Below, one piece after another: positions 16,939 to 22,461 of a stretch of DNA of 40,875 nucleotides. Position 1 is the first letter of the stretch. Each line of letters begins with the position of its first letter. Source of the DNA: a virus; the IMG/VR virus record IMGVR_UViG_3300036779_000170; one strand, 5' to 3'. The translations under genes were made by a program, and so were the position numbers. The notes under the pieces were generated by a model, which ran no database searches, was not told the origin of the DNA, and saw only the letters and a program-made list of their open reading frames with translations.

Positions 16939-17397
16939 GTGTTACGCAGCGGGCGGGATCTGGTAAAGGGAAAGGGTACCGTGAGAATTTCATCGACTAA
17001 AAAGAATCGGGATTACGACGAAGGAATAGAGCGGCATTACACCGTGCAGCAGGTGGCCTTTCGGTGGAACGTTGCGGTACGCACCATCAGGAGGTTGTTC
17101 GAGAACGAGCCGGATGTGATGCGCATTTGCCTTCCCCGGCAACTCGGGTCCAGCCAAAACCAGCGGGGAACACTTCGCATTCCTGAGTCGGCAGTACAGC
17201 GGGTCCACGATTACCTGAGCATGCCTACGGGACAGGTGGAACCACCGGAAGAAGCGGAGCAGCCCAGGGAAGCGGCACCGCCGAAAGCGAAGAGGAAGCG
17301 CGGACGTCCGCGCAAGGCTACGCCTGCGCTGTCCGACGCGGCACCGGTTTCAGAAGAACCGGAGTTCGGGGATGCCCGAAGCGAAGACGCGCTGTAA
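16939..17397 (+). CDS. Excisionase/MerR-type HTH DNA-binding protein (Xis/RDF candidate)
   Basis: YTVQQVAFRWNVAVRTIRRLFENEPDVMRI...TLRIPESAVQRV. Its 3' end overlaps the integrase 3' end convergently. Confidence 0.6.
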   Translation: MLRSGRDLVKGKGTVRISSTKKNRDYDEGIERHYTVQQVAFRWNVAVRTIRRLFENEPDVMRICLPRQLGSSQNQRGTLRIPESAVQRVHDYLSMPTGQVEPPEEAEQPREAAPPKAKRKRGRPRKATPALSDAAPVSEEPEFGDARSEDAL

Positions 17398-18511
17398 GCT
17401 CGTCGAGCAAATCCTGATGCTTATCGAGATGATGCAAATAATGCCGTTCGGTCACCGCAATCGACGAGTGACCCAACAATTTTTGGATGTGGCGAACATC
17501 TCCGCCTTCGGAAAGCATGGCTACTGCGAACGTGTCCCTGAACCGGTGGGGATGCAGGTCTTTCACGCCGGCGATCTCGCCGAGTCTTCCGATCACGTTG
17601 CGGAGGGTCTCACAAAGACTTTTGAGAGTGCCGTCGCCCGACCAGAAAAAAAACTGCGGATTGGAAGCGGGCAACGCCAGCAGCAGTTTCACGGTCTCTT
17701 CCGGCAGTTTGACTTTAATCGAAGTCCTTCCCTGGGATTTGAGAGGTTTCACGGTCAGGTGTCCGGTTGCCGGGTTCAGCGCGCTCCGTCGCAGCGCAGC
17801 CACGTCACTGATGCGCAAACCGGAGTGCAGGAGCAAAGAGATCAAAGCGTGAGCCCGCTGCCGCCCATAAACATTGCTTGGATTCATACCCTGACGGCTG
17901 ACACCAAAACTGTCGCAGGCTTTAATGATGCGGGCTACTTCGTCCTCGTCAAGCGGAGGCGTGCAGAGTTCCTTCGCTGCCGGCTTTGGAACTCTCGCGG
18001 TCGGGTTGTGCGTGATCCAGCAGCGGGGCTCAGATGCGCACCAGGAGAAGAACGATCTGATGATCGTAAGCTCAGTAGCCCAACTGCCCGGGGCCAGATG
18101 TTTCCGCTGGATGCTTCGAAAGTTGCTGATGTCATCCTCATTGATGGCGCTCATAGGAATGCTGCCGGCGGCTTCGACAAATGGCCGCGTCAATTTTTTA
18201 TAACTGTCGATGGTGTTGGCGGCCAGACCGATGTCAGGATTTTCAAGATGGGTATGCCAAAGAGTCATGGCAGCTGCGACGGTCAGGCCAACTTTGACAC
18301 GACGGTCGACGCCCCGGAGAAGATCCTGCACCTTGCGGTTCGCCACTGCAATCTCGCTGGTCTCAAGGCTGTGGCGGATGGGTTCGTTGGCACTATTGAC
18401 GCGGCCTCTTACCCAGATCGTGCACTGGCAAAGGCCGCCCTTGTCACGACCGGTGCGCAGGCATTCCCGCGAGTGGCGACGGTAGGTTATCAGGTTTGTG
18501 GAAGGCTTCAT
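17318..18511 (-). CDS. int: Tyrosine integrase
   Basis: HSGLRISDV, HPHRFRDTFA, LLGHSSIAVTERHYLH (R, HxxR, H, Y). ATG 18511 (MKPSTNLITYRRH) is preferred over the TTG at 18571. Confidence 0.85.
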   Translation of the reverse strand: MKPSTNLITYRRHSRECLRTGRDKGGLCQCTIWVRGRVNSANEPIRHSLETSEIAVANRKVQDLLRGVDRRVKVGLTVAAAMTLWHTHLENPDIGLAANTIDSYKKLTRPFVEAAGSIPMSAINEDDISNFRSIQRKHLAPGSWATELTIIRSFFSWCASEPRCWITHNPTARVPKPAAKELCTPPLDEDEVARIIKACDSFGVSRQGMNPSNVYGRQRAHALISLLLHSGLRISDVAALRRSALNPATGHLTVKPLKSQGRTSIKVKLPEETVKLLLALPASNPQFFFWSGDGTLKSLCETLRNVIGRLGEIAGVKDLHPHRFRDTFAVAMLSEGGDVRHIQKLLGHSSIAVTERHYLHHLDKHQDLLDELTARLRFGHPRTPVLLKPVPRRTAQA

Positions 18512-18716
18512 TACCTTCACAATATCATGATAGGTACACAAAGCGAGTACACGGCCTGCGAGAATATCCAAAACACCAATGTTTTATGGGGTGAGTCGAT
18601 TCGTCCAATAAACCCAAGACTATTGAAAACGTTGATTTTAAAGGACAGACAAGTGGCCCAAGTGTCCTCAAAAGGCCCAAATACCCCCTCTGTGTACACG
18701 CGTGTACGAATGTTTT
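18512..18716. promoter_or_regulatory. Integrase/methyltransferase divergent intergenic region (attP and promoter candidate)
   Basis: GTACAC at 18534, 18547 and 18694. 14-bp palindrome GTACACGCGTGTAC at 18694-18707. AATGTTTTATG at 18578 and again at 18709-18719, the second copy running 3 nt past this feature into the MTase start codon. AT-richer than its surroundings. Confidence 0.35.
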
Positions 18717-19802
18717 ATGCCAAGTGTTTACTACAACGAATTCGATCCAAAGGCGGCGGCATGGCTGCGCGAACTGATGGAAGGTGGCTTGATTCCGGCG
18801 GGGGATGTCGATGAGCGTTCAATTATTGATGTTCGAGCAGCCGACCTCGCCGGATACACCCAGTGCCATTTCTTCGCCGGGATCGGCGGATGGTCTTACG
18901 CCCTGCGCCTCGCCGGATGGCCGGATGACCGTGCCGTCTGGACCGCAAGCTGCCCGTGCCAGCCGTTCAGCGTCGCCGGAAAACAGGAAGGCCACACGGA
19001 TACCCGCGACCTTTGGCCTGCGTTTTGGCGCATCGCATCCGAGCGACATCCTGACCGAATCTTTGGGGAACAGGTTGCGAACTCTGTTGGATTCGGCTGG
19101 ATCGACCGTGTACGCGCAGACGTGGAGAAGGAAGCGTACGCTCTCGGGATTGCGGTTCTGGGAGCACACAGCGCGGGAGCGCCCCACATCAGACAGCGGC
19201 TGTACTGGGTGGCCAACGCCGAACACGCCCAGCGGAGGCCCGAATACCCGCAGTACGCCGACGCATACGGGCGGAATGGATCTGGAGGGCGCGGCGCACC
19301 TGGTTGGCTGGCCGAGTCCATGCACGCCGAACGGCGGCCGCTCAATGGCACCGGAAAAGATGGATGCGACGGGGCGCACGGCGGACGGCAGGAAGCATGC
19401 GGCGTCACTGGAGCATGCGGCGAAGTTTGCGGGCTGGGCGACACCAACTGTTCGGGATCACAAGGATGGAGCGTCCGACCTGACCAATACTCCAATCAAT
19501 GGATTGCTGGGGAGGCAGGTCAGTCTAACGGGGTGGGGAACGCCGACGTGCCAGGACGCGCAACACTACGGGATTTCGGAGTCGGAGAAATCCAGAGATC
19601 CGAAGAACCTGCGTATACAGGTGCATGGAGCGATTTCGACCGGCTCCCCTGCACCGACGGAAAAACGCGGCTCACTCAACCCGGCCTTCAGCCGCTGGCT
19701 AATGGGGTTCCCGCCAGAATGGTGCGACTGCGCGGTTACGGCAATGCAATCGTTCCGCAAACTGCCGCGCTCTTTATCCGCGCGTGTCTCGCGGAGGACT
19801 GA
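18717..19802 (+). CDS. C5-cytosine DNA methyltransferase (frame A)
   Basis: MPSVYYNEFDPKAAAWLRELMEGG. FAGIGG 18873-18890, PCQPFS 18954-18971, GEQV, GAPHIRQRLYWVA to 19214, GYGNAIVPQ 19734-19760. The middle is G/R/A-rich. Confidence 0.8.
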   Translation: MPSVYYNEFDPKAAAWLRELMEGGLIPAGDVDERSIIDVRAADLAGYTQCHFFAGIGGWSYALRLAGWPDDRAVWTASCPCQPFSVAGKQEGHTDTRDLWPAFWRIASERHPDRIFGEQVANSVGFGWIDRVRADVEKEAYALGIAVLGAHSAGAPHIRQRLYWVANAEHAQRRPEYPQYADAYGRNGSGGRGAPGWLAESMHAERRPLNGTGKDGCDGAHGGRQEACGVTGACGEVCGLGDTNCSGSQGWSVRPDQYSNQWIAGEAGQSNGVGNADVPGRATLRDFGVGEIQRSEEPAYTGAWSDFDRLPCTDGKTRLTQPGLQPLANGVPARMVRLRGYGNAIVPQTAALFIRACLAED

Positions 19803-19806
19803 ATGA
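18805..19806 (+). other. Long +1-frame ORF nested in the methyltransferase gene; coding status unresolved
   Basis: 333 codons. G-W-x-[TS]-P modules start at 19207, 19306, 19432 and 19531. Also GWATPTVRDHKDG and LNPAFSRWLMGFPPEW (19675-19722). Confidence 0.35.
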
Positions 19807-19997
19807 AGCTCTTTTGCCGGCATCTCCGGGTGACCTTCCCTCAGACCGCATACGGCGACAAGACCGCCCACGTCACCTGCCTGGACTGCGGCGACGAATT
19901 CGATTACGACTGGCAGACGATGGAGATCGGCCAGAGAAGAGAACCAATTCAAAAAGGAGAAACCCATGTTTGTGATCCGCCTGATACGCAGAACTGA
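19803..19997 (+). CDS. Small zinc-ribbon protein
   Basis: The ATG directly follows the MTase TGA. Contains CLDCGDEF. Confidence 0.5.
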   Translation: MKLFCRHLRVTFPQTAYGDKTAHVTCLDCGDEFDYDWQTMEIGQRREPIQKGETHVCDPPDTQN

Positions 19998-20325
19998 CAG
20001 CACTAAAACCGACTACGACGGCAAGTACCTGATCGACTTCGACCCGGGGCTGCTCAACGAGAAGGACGAGGAAGACCCCTTCGTGCATCTGGTCGTCACC
20101 GACGCTCCGAAGGACGCGCGGAAATTCGAAAACGAAATCGACGCCTGGAATTTCTACCTCGACAAACCGCTCAGCGCTTTCGCGGTAGACCTGCTGGAGG
20201 TCGAAGCCGAAACACCGAAGGCGGAAGAGCCAGAGACAAAAGAGCCAGAGGCAGAAGCGCCGGAGACAAAGGAACCGGAGGTAAAAGAGCCGGAAGCAAT
20301 AGCACCGGAGGCGGAACATGTTTGA
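19966..20325 (+). CDS. Hypothetical protein with a C-terminal E/P/K tandem repeat; paralogue of 22767-23033
   Basis: DGKYLIDFDP...DPFVHLVVTDAPKDARKFENEIDAWNFY aligns with the minus-strand paralogue. C-terminus ETPKAEEPETKEPEAEAPETKEPEVKEPEA. Confidence 0.6.
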   Translation: MFVIRLIRRTDSTKTDYDGKYLIDFDPGLLNEKDEEDPFVHLVVTDAPKDARKFENEIDAWNFYLDKPLSAFAVDLLEVEAETPKAEEPETKEPEAEAPETKEPEVKEPEAIAPEAEHV

Positions 20326-20676: not shown

Positions 20677-20700
20677 TTGCGATGCAAAGGAATAACGGAC

Positions 20701-22461
20701 ATGTTCGTCGAGTTCACAGCCAGCGAAGTCGCGGCCTACTGCCGCGTCCGGGTTCCCGGCCTCAAAAAGATCGGCGCCGAATGGCGCGGCCCCTGTCCGG
20801 TGCATGGCGGCAAAGACCCTAATTTTGCCGTGGATCCGCAGACCGGGATGGCCATGTGCCACAGCCGGTGCGGTCGGGGATTCGACATCATTTCGCTGGA
20901 AATGGCCCTCCGGCGGGTTGAGTTCGTACCCGCCAAACTCGAAGTCTTTCGCATAGTCGGCAGGCCTGAGCCGCAGTGGGAAGACCTCAGTTTTGAGGCC
21001 ACCTACGATTACACCGACGCCGACGGTAATCTGCTCTACCAGGTTGTGCGCAAACCCGGCAAGGTGTTCATGCAGCGCAGGTGGCTGGACGGCAGATGGT
21101 CGTGGGCCCTGGGCGACACACCGCGAGTTCCGTTTCGCCTGCCGGAATTACTGGCCTGCAAAACAGTAGTCGCGGTTGTCGAAGGCGAGAAGTGCGCAGT
21201 AAACATGGTCCGCGCCGGCTGGGTGGCAACTACAAATTCCGGCGGGGCTTGCAACTTCAAACCGGAACTGGTGCCGCATTTCGCCGGCAAGCACGTCGCC
21301 GTGTTCGGTGACAATGACGACAAAGGCAGGCAGCATGTCGACCTCGTGGCGAGGCTCCTCGCGCCAGTGGCGGCCAGTCTGAAGATTGTGGAGATTCCCG
21401 ACCTGCCGGAAAAGGGGGATGTATCTGACTTCCTGGCCCGGGGCGGTACCGGCCTCGATCTGCGCAACCTGTATCGCGCAGCGCCTGAGTGGACGCCTGA
21501 GGTGAAACCAGAGACTCCGCTGGTGCATGAGAACGACCGCTACCTCCGCACCTTCGGCGACGAACTGCGCGCCGCCGGCGGATTTGAAGGCTTCTGGAAA
21601 TCGCTGGACATCGAAGGCCTGCCTACTCCCTTTCCGCCGCTGACCCGCAAGCTGGGCGGAATGCGCAAAGGCGAGGTCTACATACTGGCGGCCCGCACCG
21701 GCCAGGGTAAGACTTCGCTGGTTTTGCAGTTCGCCGATGCCGCGCTGACCTCGCGCACCGGCGTTCTCTTGTTTTCGATGGAAATGGGACACCGTGACGC
21801 CTTCCAGCGCCTGGCGGCGCAGCGGGCCAGGGTGGATTTGTCGCACTTCCGGCATCTGCGGCGAACCGGTCTCGACTCCCCGCTGCTCTGGGAGATGACA
21901 ATGGCGCTGCGGGAGGCGACTGAGACTTACGCCCAGTCGTCTTTATTCGTTTCCACCAAGTCTGCGGTTACCCCGGAATTTCTGCATATCGAATCCATGC
22001 GCGTGCGGGAGCGCAGCCAGGTCGGTCTGGTGGTAGTCGACCACATGCAACTTATGGGCGGCGATCCGAAACTTCGATCCGAATACGAGAAGTTTACGGC
22101 AATTAGCCGAATTACCAAACAAATCGCAGTCAACCTCGATGTACCGCTCATCCTCGTAAGCCAGGTTAACCGCAGCAATGCGGAGCGCAGGGGAACTGAA
22201 CTGGAAATGACTGATCTTCGATCCTCGGGCGCCCTCGAAGAGGACGCCGCCGCCGTCCTGCTGCTCTATTACGACAAGGACGACGTGAAAGAAGCCGAGC
22301 GCGATCCCACCGGCGAACGCATAAAACGCGGCCCTATCAGTACGTGGTTAAAACTGGCCAAAAACCGCTATGGCTGCAGCGGCACTTACGAGAAGCTGGT
22401 GCACATGAAAGCAATTACGCGGTTCGATATGAGCCAGCAGGCTGCGGCGGCTCACGCCTGA
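20701..22461 (+). CDS. Bifunctional primase-helicase (CHC2 zinc finger, TOPRIM, DnaB-like ATPase)
   Basis: GPCPVHGGKDPNFAVDPQTGMAMCHSRC, VAVVEGEKC...FGDNDDKG, Walker A ARTGQGKTS, VVVDHMQLM. Confidence 0.85.
   Translation: MFVEFTASEVAAYCRVRVPGLKKIGAEWRGPCPVHGGKDPNFAVDPQTGMAMCHSRCGRGFDIISLEMALRRVEFVPAKLEVFRIVGRPEPQWEDLSFEATYDYTDADGNLLYQVVRKPGKVFMQRRWLDGRWSWALGDTPRVPFRLPELLACKTVVAVVEGEKCAVNMVRAGWVATTNSGGACNFKPELVPHFAGKHVAVFGDNDDKGRQHVDLVARLLAPVAASLKIVEIPDLPEKGDVSDFLARGGTGLDLRNLYRAAPEWTPEVKPETPLVHENDRYLRTFGDELRAAGGFEGFWKSLDIEGLPTPFPPLTRKLGGMRKGEVYILAARTGQGKTSLVLQFADAALTSRTGVLLFSMEMGHRDAFQRLAAQRARVDLSHFRHLRRTGLDSPLLWEMTMALREATETYAQSSLFVSTKSAVTPEFLHIESMRVRERSQVGLVVVDHMQLMGGDPKLRSEYEKFTAISRITKQIAVNLDVPLILVSQVNRSNAERRGTELEMTDLRSSGALEEDAAAVLLLYYDKDDVKEAERDPTGERIKRGPISTWLKLAKNRYGCSGTYEKLVHMKAITRFDMSQQAAAAHA

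Follow-up and report, generated by a model that had tools for sequence, protein, structure and literature searches.

In the C5-methyltransferase M.HhaI, motifs I to VIII together with motif X make up the large domain, and the target-recognition region together with motif IX makes up the small domain; the VIII/target-recognition and IX/X boundaries are the boundaries between the two. C5-methyltransferases of Bacillus phages (SPR, phi3T and others) are multispecific, single-chain enzymes with tandem target-recognition domains (TRDs), each of which has been mapped to its target. M.EcoHK31I of Escherichia coli HK31 is a C5-methyltransferase that recognizes YGGCCR and consists of two different chains (Lee, Kam and Shaw 1995, cited in PMC2836561 and PMC3404938). 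It is a natural α/β heterodimer whose β chain is read from another frame of the α gene (PMC2836561, PMC3404938). This arrangement was shown biochemically: α alone is inactive, and both chains are required (PMC2836561). The chains also work when they are encoded separately (PMC2836561, PMC3404938). Internal Met codons of β can serve as starts, and N-terminal deletions of this chain progressively weaken its association with α (PMC2836561). In M.AquI, according to the account in PMC3404938, a simple N/C cut leaves motifs I to VIII on the larger subunit and motifs IX and X on the smaller one. Here we analyze a locus in a 40,875-nucleotide stretch of viral DNA, IMG/VR record IMGVR_UViG_3300036779_000170 (the whole stretch is called the window below). 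The locus is very likely a C5-methyltransferase split between two overlapping reading frames, A and B, whose products most likely form an α/β heterodimer. The arrangement belongs to the known but rare M.EcoHK31I type and is not categorically new. What appears to be under-recognized in the searchable literature is its wide distribution, its mosaic of constraints, the position of the recognition region on the β-like chain and its misannotation; nothing specific was found on "Mte8" or on a phage-wide arrangement, in a search whose coverage excluded most subscription journals.

The two open reading frames (ORFs) lie on the same strand (Table 1). Frame B is frame A+1, covers nearly all of it (331 versus 361 codons) and ends 4 nucleotides past its stop; the third frame of the locus is stop-rich. 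A sequence-only reading of the window had described two almost co-extensive ORFs in this register. The ORF map agrees, all the motifs listed for either frame are found where that reading placed them, and the shared nucleotides do translate as WVANA in A and GWPTP in B. Motifs I, IV, VI (a variant with an invariant E) and VIII of the C5-methyltransferases are all four on frame A. This frame scores 56.2 bits against Pfam PF00145 (cutoff 22), over residues 75-171 only, aligns to M.HhaI residues 71-170, and matches phrog_363, "DNA methyltransferase", end to end with 239 bits. The order VIII-TRD-IX-X does not occur on one polypeptide: motif X is on A, and the segment homologous to the TRD and motif IX is on B. 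Frame B matches phrog_1008, also "DNA methyltransferase", with 75 bits over residues 12-323. This match and the labels in GenBank bear out the earlier remark that the motifs of B are known from annotated phage methylase-like proteins.

Single-chain relatives show what the middle of B is. Two actinophage enzymes, gp76 of Mycobacterium phage Rita and gp4 of Gordonia phage JKSyngboy, align in a single piece with an A-B-A chimera. Rita gp76 (389 amino acids, aa) carries in one frame FSGAGG, PCQPFS, ENV, GAPHRRER, three LLPTPxxxDGxGG modules, LAPAFSEWMMGWPAGW and IIGNGVVPQ. The block LNPAFSRWLMGFPPEW of B aligns to LAPAFSEWMMGWPAGW, just upstream of the Rita motif X, and Rita gp76 has no counterpart of the C-terminal block of frame A before that motif. 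The off-frames contain 7 stops each in Rita gp76, and 5-7 across both single-chain enzymes. When family profiles were compared by hhalign, that of A matched Rita residues 65-162 (99.4% probability, expectation value E=1.6e-21) and that of B residues 239-352 (92% probability, E=6e-7). From these colinear matches, the middle of B with the LNPAFSxWLMGxPxxW block is the ancestral target-recognition/motif IX segment, displaced from its place between motifs VIII and X. The novel parts are the middle of A, an unconstrained spacer, and the N-terminal leader and docking block of B. Given the domain division of M.HhaI, the two frames would correspond to the two structural domains of the enzyme.

These matches also bear on the idea that both frames are translated but that A alone is the enzyme, B being an independent overprinted protein, for example one involved in anti-defence or DNA binding. 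In favor of this, B, used as a single sequence or as a profile, had no match in Pfam, NCBIfam or the PDB sequences; A, moreover, has all the catalytic motifs as well as motif X. However, the modules and the C-terminal block of B are homologous to the VIII-X segment of single-chain C5-methyltransferases, A has no conserved sequence at that position, and the α chain of M.EcoHK31I is inactive by itself (PMC2836561). We regard an independent role for B as unlikely.

The constraints on the two frames are best seen in the entropy of nucleotides by codon phase. It was computed over 84 unique genes; the tests of stop codons described below used the same 84 genes. Between 18732 and 19046, the third position of A is the most variable (1.3-1.6 bits, versus 0.2-0.9 at positions 1 and 2), as for selection on A only. 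In the leader of B the most variable phase is the second codon position of B (1.27-1.47 bits), and the sequence of the leader is therefore not selected. Between 19047 and 19205 there is no most-variable phase, all three being about equally constrained, as for selection on both frames. From 19206 to about 19620, it is the third position of B that varies most within the conserved modules (B only). Both frames are constrained from 19620 to 19722, with B dominant; the phases of B have 0.39, 0.35 and 0.76 bits between 19677 and 19722. From 19723 on, the third position of A is again the most variable (0.46, 0.45 and 1.15 bits; A only). Wobble thus sits on the third position of B over about 500 nucleotides. 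Column identity in frame A is 0.10-0.37 in the spacer and 0.76-0.82 in the C-terminal block (19617-19733). The sequence-only reading had proposed looking for suppressed synonymous variation, and this gives the same map. At conserved four-fold sites of A, the third-position entropy is 1.60 bits in the A-only region (n=30), 0.77 bits in the dual-coded block (n=11, p=6e-5 versus the A-only region) and 0.30 bits under the LNP..WLMG block of B (n=10, p=2e-6); four-fold sites of B in the middle of the gene have 1.62 bits. The low four-fold entropy in the tail of B (Table 1) arises because these sites are first positions of A: conservation of the tail is passive, imposed by motif X of frame A. Selection therefore forms a mosaic along the gene (A, A+B, B, both with B dominant, A), and both frames are maintained by selection as ORFs.

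Frame B also has a positionally conserved ATG with a Shine-Dalgarno (SD)-like site. The first B-frame ATG falls within a 14-codon band in 71 of the 84 genes, and the Asp codons that create B-frame ATGs are GAT at 67-82%, versus 40% overall. An SD-like tetramer lies 4-11 nucleotides upstream of one of the first B ATGs in 78 genes; the background is 16% per random site, but up to four ATGs were allowed per gene, which makes the effective background higher, at most about 50%.

Several points weigh against the heterodimer interpretation. The AlphaFold model of B, built from a 103-sequence alignment, is of low overall confidence (mean predicted local distance difference test score, pLDDT, of 62; predicted template modeling score, pTM, of 0.31). 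A Foldseek comparison of this model with the PDB gave no meaningful match (best E=0.2), which can be ascribed to the low confidence of the model, and the prediction for frame A, made from a 2-sequence alignment, was unusable (pLDDT 34). M.EcoHK31I is likened to this locus by its published description, and the literature puts its predicted TRD on α, whereas here the conserved middle is on B. The two systems may differ in the chain that carries the TRD, or the older prediction may need revisiting. Furthermore, the related loci share a phylogeny, and statistics summed over them overstate their independence. Finally, in the window alone (61% GC) the openness of B is not statistically significant. 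In 200 synonymous shuffles per gene, which kept the amino acids and codon usage of frame A fixed, the longest +1 open run in the window averaged 183 codons and reached a maximum of 385; the observed run is 335. Such a single-window test is insufficient, and the question was therefore settled by comparison with relatives.

Through frame A, 105 loci were fetched from IMG/VR and GTDB genomes. All of those that gave a usable match (gene GC 0.48-0.67) have an open +1 frame of 228-461 codons, whereas in the +2 frame the longest run is typically 40-100; similarity to B is always in the +1 frame. Because this set had been chosen by frame-A matches, a second one was fetched through the conserved part of B alone (51 loci, 45 of them unique). 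Within the B-matched region, all 45 loci together have a single stop in frame A (B-1), against 463 in the control frame. Altogether, about 130 independent related loci (gene GC 0.48-0.70) have both frames open and the third one not. Synonymous shuffling of the 84 genes gives the expected numbers of stops. The unconserved middle of A (19212-19605) has 0 where about 204 are expected; B has 0 between 19047 and 19212 (56 expected) and 14 between 18822 and 19047 (57 expected). The control frame, over all four regions, has 153-398 per region, near the expected 171-387.

One of the options left by the sequence-only reading was that B is a shadow ORF, open by chance and untranslated, cast by the GC-rich, periodic codon usage of A. 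In its favor, the +1 run of the window lies within the range of its shuffles, and +1 stops can seldom arise given the amino acids of A (7 expected per gene, versus 16 in the +2 frame). The whole-gene shuffle was only moderately significant gene by gene: in 42 of the 84 genes, one or more of the 200 shuffles were as long as the observed run or longer. However, the observed +1 run is longer than all 200 shuffles in the six lowest-GC genes (0.48-0.52). The earlier reading had named stops of B in most relatives, and the state of low-GC relatives, as the test; in the relatives, whose GC content goes down to 48%, B is without exception open and homologous. A shadow ORF would also not account for wobble on the third position of B, for four-fold sites that are free in B through the middle and suppressed in A in the overlap blocks, for the conserved ATG with its SD-like site, or for B-type sequence standing in frame in the single-chain relatives. 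The option is thus dropped as highly improbable.

A different way of reading the A-B-A pattern is double programmed recoding, in which a +1 shift near 19206 would take ribosomes into B and a -1 shift near 19722-19735 would bring them back, yielding a single chain. The one-piece alignment of the chimera with Rita gp76 and JKSyngboy gp4 fits this well, as does the selection map, whose phases run A-B-A. Recoding would nonetheless leave the stop-free, unconserved middle of A unexplained (1 stop versus 463 in the control, 0 versus about 204 expected). Frame A is uninterrupted over some 135 to more than 400 unconserved codons, and in one contig (L154, described below) even across an inserted HNH endonuclease gene. 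Nor would recoding account for the long open stretch of B that precedes the first junction, or for the conserved ATG and SD-like site in it. A canonical -1 heptamer in the B phase is present at the second junction in 0 of the 84 genes, and a homopolymer run in 0 of 168 junction regions. At the first junction the nucleotide sequence varies, and A shows neither a stop nor an obvious stall codon. We know of no precedent for two efficient shifts in one gene. The chimera scores 207 bits against phrog_363, below the 239 bits of frame A alone; this is not discriminating, since the PHROG was presumably built from annotated frame-A proteins that include the spacer. Two polypeptides are favored over double frameshifting because of the stop-free middle of A, the conserved ATG and SD-like site of B and the lack of slippery junctions, and we consider recoding very unlikely. 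The sequence-only reading had listed shifts near 19206 and 19722 as its second option: the colinearity with single-chain relatives holds, but as a decoding mechanism it is not borne out, given the stop-free middle of A and the lack of slippery junctions. Its first option, an intact methyltransferase in A with an overprinted gene in B, came closest on mechanism, in that both full-length ORFs are maintained; it was mistaken about which part is new.

One can envision how the split enzyme would be made. Translation of frame A from ATG 18717 would yield an α-like chain with motifs I, IV, VI and VIII, a spacer of about 135 residues, the C-terminal block and motif X. Frame B would be initiated independently, at the internal SD-like site and ATG 18805/18811. 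The resulting β-like chain would have a disordered leader, a helix-hairpin docking on α, an array of G-W-x-[TS]-P modules at the TRD position and the motif IX-like LNPAFSRWLMGFPPEW. In the AlphaFold model of B, residues 1-75 of the leader have no secondary structure (pLDDT about 55), and residues 77-123, which map to 19039-19179 within the dual-coded block, form a helix (77-95) and a β-hairpin (101-123) with a pLDDT of 76-89; the repeat modules are of low confidence, and helices are predicted at the motif IX-like block. The helix-hairpin is proposed as an α-docking element, because N-terminal deletions of β weaken the association of the chains in M.EcoHK31I (PMC2836561). The two chains would assemble non-covalently into one active enzyme; that both are made, assemble and are needed for activity we infer from the published behavior of M.EcoHK31I. 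The assembled enzyme would then methylate phage DNA and protect it from host restriction. The phage context and the absence of a restriction gene among the neighbors tested make an orphan anti-restriction methylase the most likely role. The number of W-x-[TS]-P motifs per B-family protein ranges from 0 to 11. Long B homologues (430-612 aa), considered as possible catalytic fusions, turned out to be B proteins with more modules, and none has a Pfam domain.

The B family is large, often misannotated and without a Pfam or NCBIfam model. A phmmer search with the conserved part of B among 1.84 billion cluster representatives (50%-identity clusters) returned 11,191 matches at E<=1e-3 and 6,707 at E<=1e-10. 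A word-index search with B gave 1,987 clusters at E<=1e-10; none of them has a Pfam domain or any name other than "hypothetical". The hosts of the family include Proteobacteria, Cyanobacteria, Acidobacteria, Verrucomicrobia and others. By tblastn against 50,697 phage records, similarity to frame B was found in 242 and to frame A in 440, and full-length matches coincide by locus; Escherichia, Klebsiella, Salmonella, Edwardsiella, Xanthomonas, Burkholderia, Rhodobacter and Cylindrospermopsis are among the hosts of the phages matched. The arrangement is present across thousands of phage genes, and it is mislabeled in databases. The window is a complete JGI contig. At the locus in it, the JGI gene call is frame A, "DNA (cytosine-5)-methyltransferase 1", and the Logan pipeline calls frame B, the exact 331-aa product being in the gene-call database (P0001). 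GenBank has both ORFs for phage K1ind2, a complete isolate genome ("C-specific methylase" and "Mte8-like protein"), and frame A alone for phage eiAU. For Cylindrospermopsis phage Cr-LKS3 (OM373202.1; L002:1432-2397), frame B alone is annotated, as "methyltransferase", and A, open over 322 codons, is unannotated; a second "DNA methylase" gene lies directly downstream of this two-frame locus. Labels on B-family proteins are inconsistent, ranging over "Mte8-like", "hypothetical", "DNA repair protein" and "methyltransferase".

In the prophage of E. coli Ec1117 (NZ_CP126602.1; L162:2265-4032), PGAP splits the copy into two pseudogene fragments of a DNA cytosine methyltransferase, each labeled "incomplete". 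This label, and the resemblance of the whole pattern to two compensating frameshifts relative to the single-chain enzymes, might suggest an assembly or sequencing artefact, or a decaying pseudogene produced by two compensating indels. Yet both frames of this supposed pseudogene are intact (A is open over 404 codons, B over 343), and the same architecture recurs in hundreds of phage genomes, prophages and metagenomic contigs that were sequenced independently; K1ind2 and other complete isolate genomes are among them. An artefact is hardly credible. An MT-A70 family methyltransferase just upstream of the Ec1117 copy is flagged "frameshifted" and may merit the same check.

Long same-strand overlaps are considered rare in prokaryotes and double-stranded DNA phages and are usually removed by annotation pipelines. 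The present family is a statistically strong example, with about 330 shared codons, in which the boundaries between single and dual constraint can be mapped within a few codons. It also illustrates an unusual route to a heterodimer, the middle of an enzyme having moved to the other frame, with splits at the VIII/TRD and IX/X boundaries. It is tempting to go further and see here an ancient, phage-wide dual-coding gene of about 1 kb, in which a single-chain enzyme was split "in frame space" and the β-like chain, rather than α as the M.EcoHK31I literature assumes, came to hold the specificity determinants as an array of 0 to 11 or more G-W-x-[TS]-P mini-modules. On this view, the modules could work in the manner of the tandem TRDs of multispecific phage methylases. 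We regard this broader view as possible but doubtful. If it is true, the family would be among the best comparative cases of a long, same-strand overlapping pair in double-stranded DNA phages or prokaryotes, a gene pair that is currently invisible to Pfam and NCBIfam and partly annotated as pseudogenes. On the practical side, phage methylome and anti-restriction studies that express the annotated frame A alone from recoded synthetic genes would probably obtain an inactive enzyme.

Table 1. Coordinates of the two-frame methyltransferase locus and of neighboring ORFs in the window
Feature	Coordinates	Strand	Remarks
Frame A ORF	18702..19802	+	GTG start 18702, 366 aa; ATG 18717 gives 361 aa
Frame B ORF	18805..19806	+	333 aa; ATG 18811 gives 331 aa; further in-frame ATG 18829
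Likely B initiation region	18797..18813	+	SD-like G-rich GGCGGGGGA at 18797-18805, then ATG 18805 and ATG 18811
Frame B leader, ~76 aa	18811..19038	+	amino-acid sequence not selected; predicted disordered
Frame A motif I, FAGIGG	18873..18890	+	S-adenosylmethionine binding; near-invariant in 84 homologues
Frame A motif IV, PCQPFS	18954..18971	+	catalytic Cys; P80 and C81 invariant; aligns to the PCQ motif of M.HhaI
Dual-coded block	19039..19205	+	A has motifs VI-VIII; B has conserved LGNRLRTLLDSAGSTVYAQTWRRKRTLSGLRFWEHTARERPTSDSG; family consensus of B SLASRLRAR...GSTLYxLTWKxRxTPxGRxIxALRASARRTSDS
Frame A motif VI variant, GEQV (for ENV)	19065..19076	+	E118 and Q119 invariant; aligns to ENV of M.HhaI and Rita gp76
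Frame A motif VIII, GAPHIRQRLYWVA (RQRLY)	19176..19214	+	R159 and R161 invariant
Frame A spacer, G/R/A/E-rich	19215..19616	+	sequence unconstrained, stop-free
Frame B repeat array, four G-W-x-[TS]-P modules	19207..19545	+	target-recognition region by position
Frame B module GWPTP	19207..19221	+	
Frame B module GWPSP	19306..19320	+	
Frame B module GWATP	19432..19446	+	
Frame B GWATPTVRDHKDG	19432..19470	+	
Frame B module GWGTP	19531..19545	+	
Frame A conserved C-terminal block, AWSDFDRLPCTDGKTRL..PLANGVPARMVRLR	19617..19733	+	overprinted on the motif IX region of B
Frame B motif IX-like block, LNPAFSRWLMGFPPEW	19675..19722	+	most conserved block of B
Frame A PLANGVPARMVRLRGYGNAIVPQ	19692..19760	+	motif stretch at the C-terminal end of A
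Frame B tail, CDCAVTAMQSFRKL...	19723..19806	+	phase pattern follows A; four-fold sites of B 0.50 bits
Frame A motif X, GYGNAIVPQ	19734..19760	+	G342 invariant; N343, A344 and I345 near-invariant; aligns to IIGNGVVPQ of Rita gp76
Integrase	17318..18571	-	
480-aa ORF	17372..18814	+	antisense to the integrase
64-aa ORF	19803..19997	+	ATG abuts the frame A stop (TGAATG)
119-aa ORF	19966..20325	+	acidic C-terminus
Primase/helicase	20677..22461		

The locus lies within the recombination/replication module of a temperate phage genome. Its neighbors are an Erf-like protein, an exonuclease, a resolvase, the integrase and the primase/helicase, along with small ORFs that have no family match. No nuclease of restriction-modification type was detected among the neighboring ORFs tested, although the small ORFs were not rigorously excluded, and the window contains no tRNA genes. 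The 64-aa ORF has a Cys pair (CLDCGDEF) and no PHROG match, and could encode a translationally coupled, small zinc-ribbon-like protein. The 119-aa ORF, which also lacks a PHROG match, has a repetitive C-terminus rich in Pro, Glu and Lys (…EAETPKAEEPETKEPEAEAPETKEPEVKEPEAIAPEAE). In the 480-aa ORF no features of a protein family are evident; most likely it is a shadow ORF of GC-rich DNA.

Some relatives depart from the common layout. In one IMG/VR contig (L154:1598-2971, IMGVR_UViG_3300037258_000053), an HNH endonuclease ORF (2484-2966) stands in the B frame, directly after the stop of B and before motif X of A; frame A runs through all of the insert, about 160 codons, without a stop and then continues as GYGNAIVPQ. 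This looks like a homing endonuclease inserted into the dual-coding gene without breaking frame A. Elsewhere (L122:1725-3575, IMGVR_UViG_3300012206_000007), B runs about 280 aa beyond the motif IX-like block, past the end of A, and the extension is Cys/His-rich, resembling an endonuclease VII or HNH domain (…CAVCHH…DVDHDHATGTVRGLLCTACN…). Two independent IMG/VR contigs from different samples (L155 and L156; for example L156:1556-2687) have an extra 1-nucleotide shift in mid-gene that moves both frames. There, a B-type N-terminal half continues in frame into the C-terminal block and motif X of A type, and the motif IX block of B type lies in the third frame, where it lacks a start. The gene could be decaying, or it could represent another variant of the split. 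Lastly, L131 (IMGVR_UViG_3300015206_000023, about 531-1996) has a second A-type N-terminal match (query residues 3-170), in another frame, right after the first gene, which suggests two tandem methyltransferase genes of the family.

Compared with what has been described, the locus shares some traits with each of several systems. The single-chain actinophage enzymes are homologous and have, in the same order, PCQPFS, ENV, GAPHRRER, xPTPxxxD modules (seen in Rita gp76), then L(A/S)P(A/V)F(S/V)EWMMG(W/L)P(A/R)GW and then GNGVVP. Unlike the locus studied here, they have all of this in one frame, with stops in the off-frames, and they are without the docking block of B and the CRDGK C-terminal block of A. 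The SPR and phi3T enzymes of Bacillus phages, too, have a variable region of several tandem modules in a phage anti-restriction methylase, but they are single chains in which the targets of the domains have been mapped, whereas the G-W-x-[TS]-P modules are putative recognition units. A likeness of another kind is found in the overprinted genes of phiX174 and tymoviruses, reviewed in PMC8227390: there also, two frames of the same strand are selected, and one segment per product is novel, disordered or of low complexity, and fast-evolving. Those cases pair an ancestral gene with a de novo one; here, an ancestral single gene is spread over two frames, the overlap extends over about 1 kb in a double-stranded DNA phage, and each product is part ancestral and part novel. 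M.AquI, in the account given in PMC3404938, resembles the locus as a C5-methyltransferase split in the variable region into two chains that reconstitute activity. It differs in that motif X here stays with motifs I to VIII, the ORFs overlap by about 1 kb and the second chain comes from another frame.

M.EcoHK31I is closest. Its α chain has motifs I to VIII and X, as does frame A, and within α a second ORF on the same strand, in another frame, carries motif IX, as frame B carries its motif IX-like block. Its β chain has several usable internal starts and an N-terminal part that aids association with α. In the phage locus, by contrast, B spans almost the whole of A, ends 4 nucleotides beyond its stop and has a non-conserved leader of about 76 aa. 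M.EcoHK31I is, moreover, part of a restriction-modification system, whereas the present copy is in a phage replication/recombination module; a search of plasmids returned phage-plasmid copies only, with no link to restriction-modification, and a search of E. coli genomes returned prophage copies. The placement of the conserved middle on B suggests that it is worth checking which chain of M.EcoHK31I carries target recognition.

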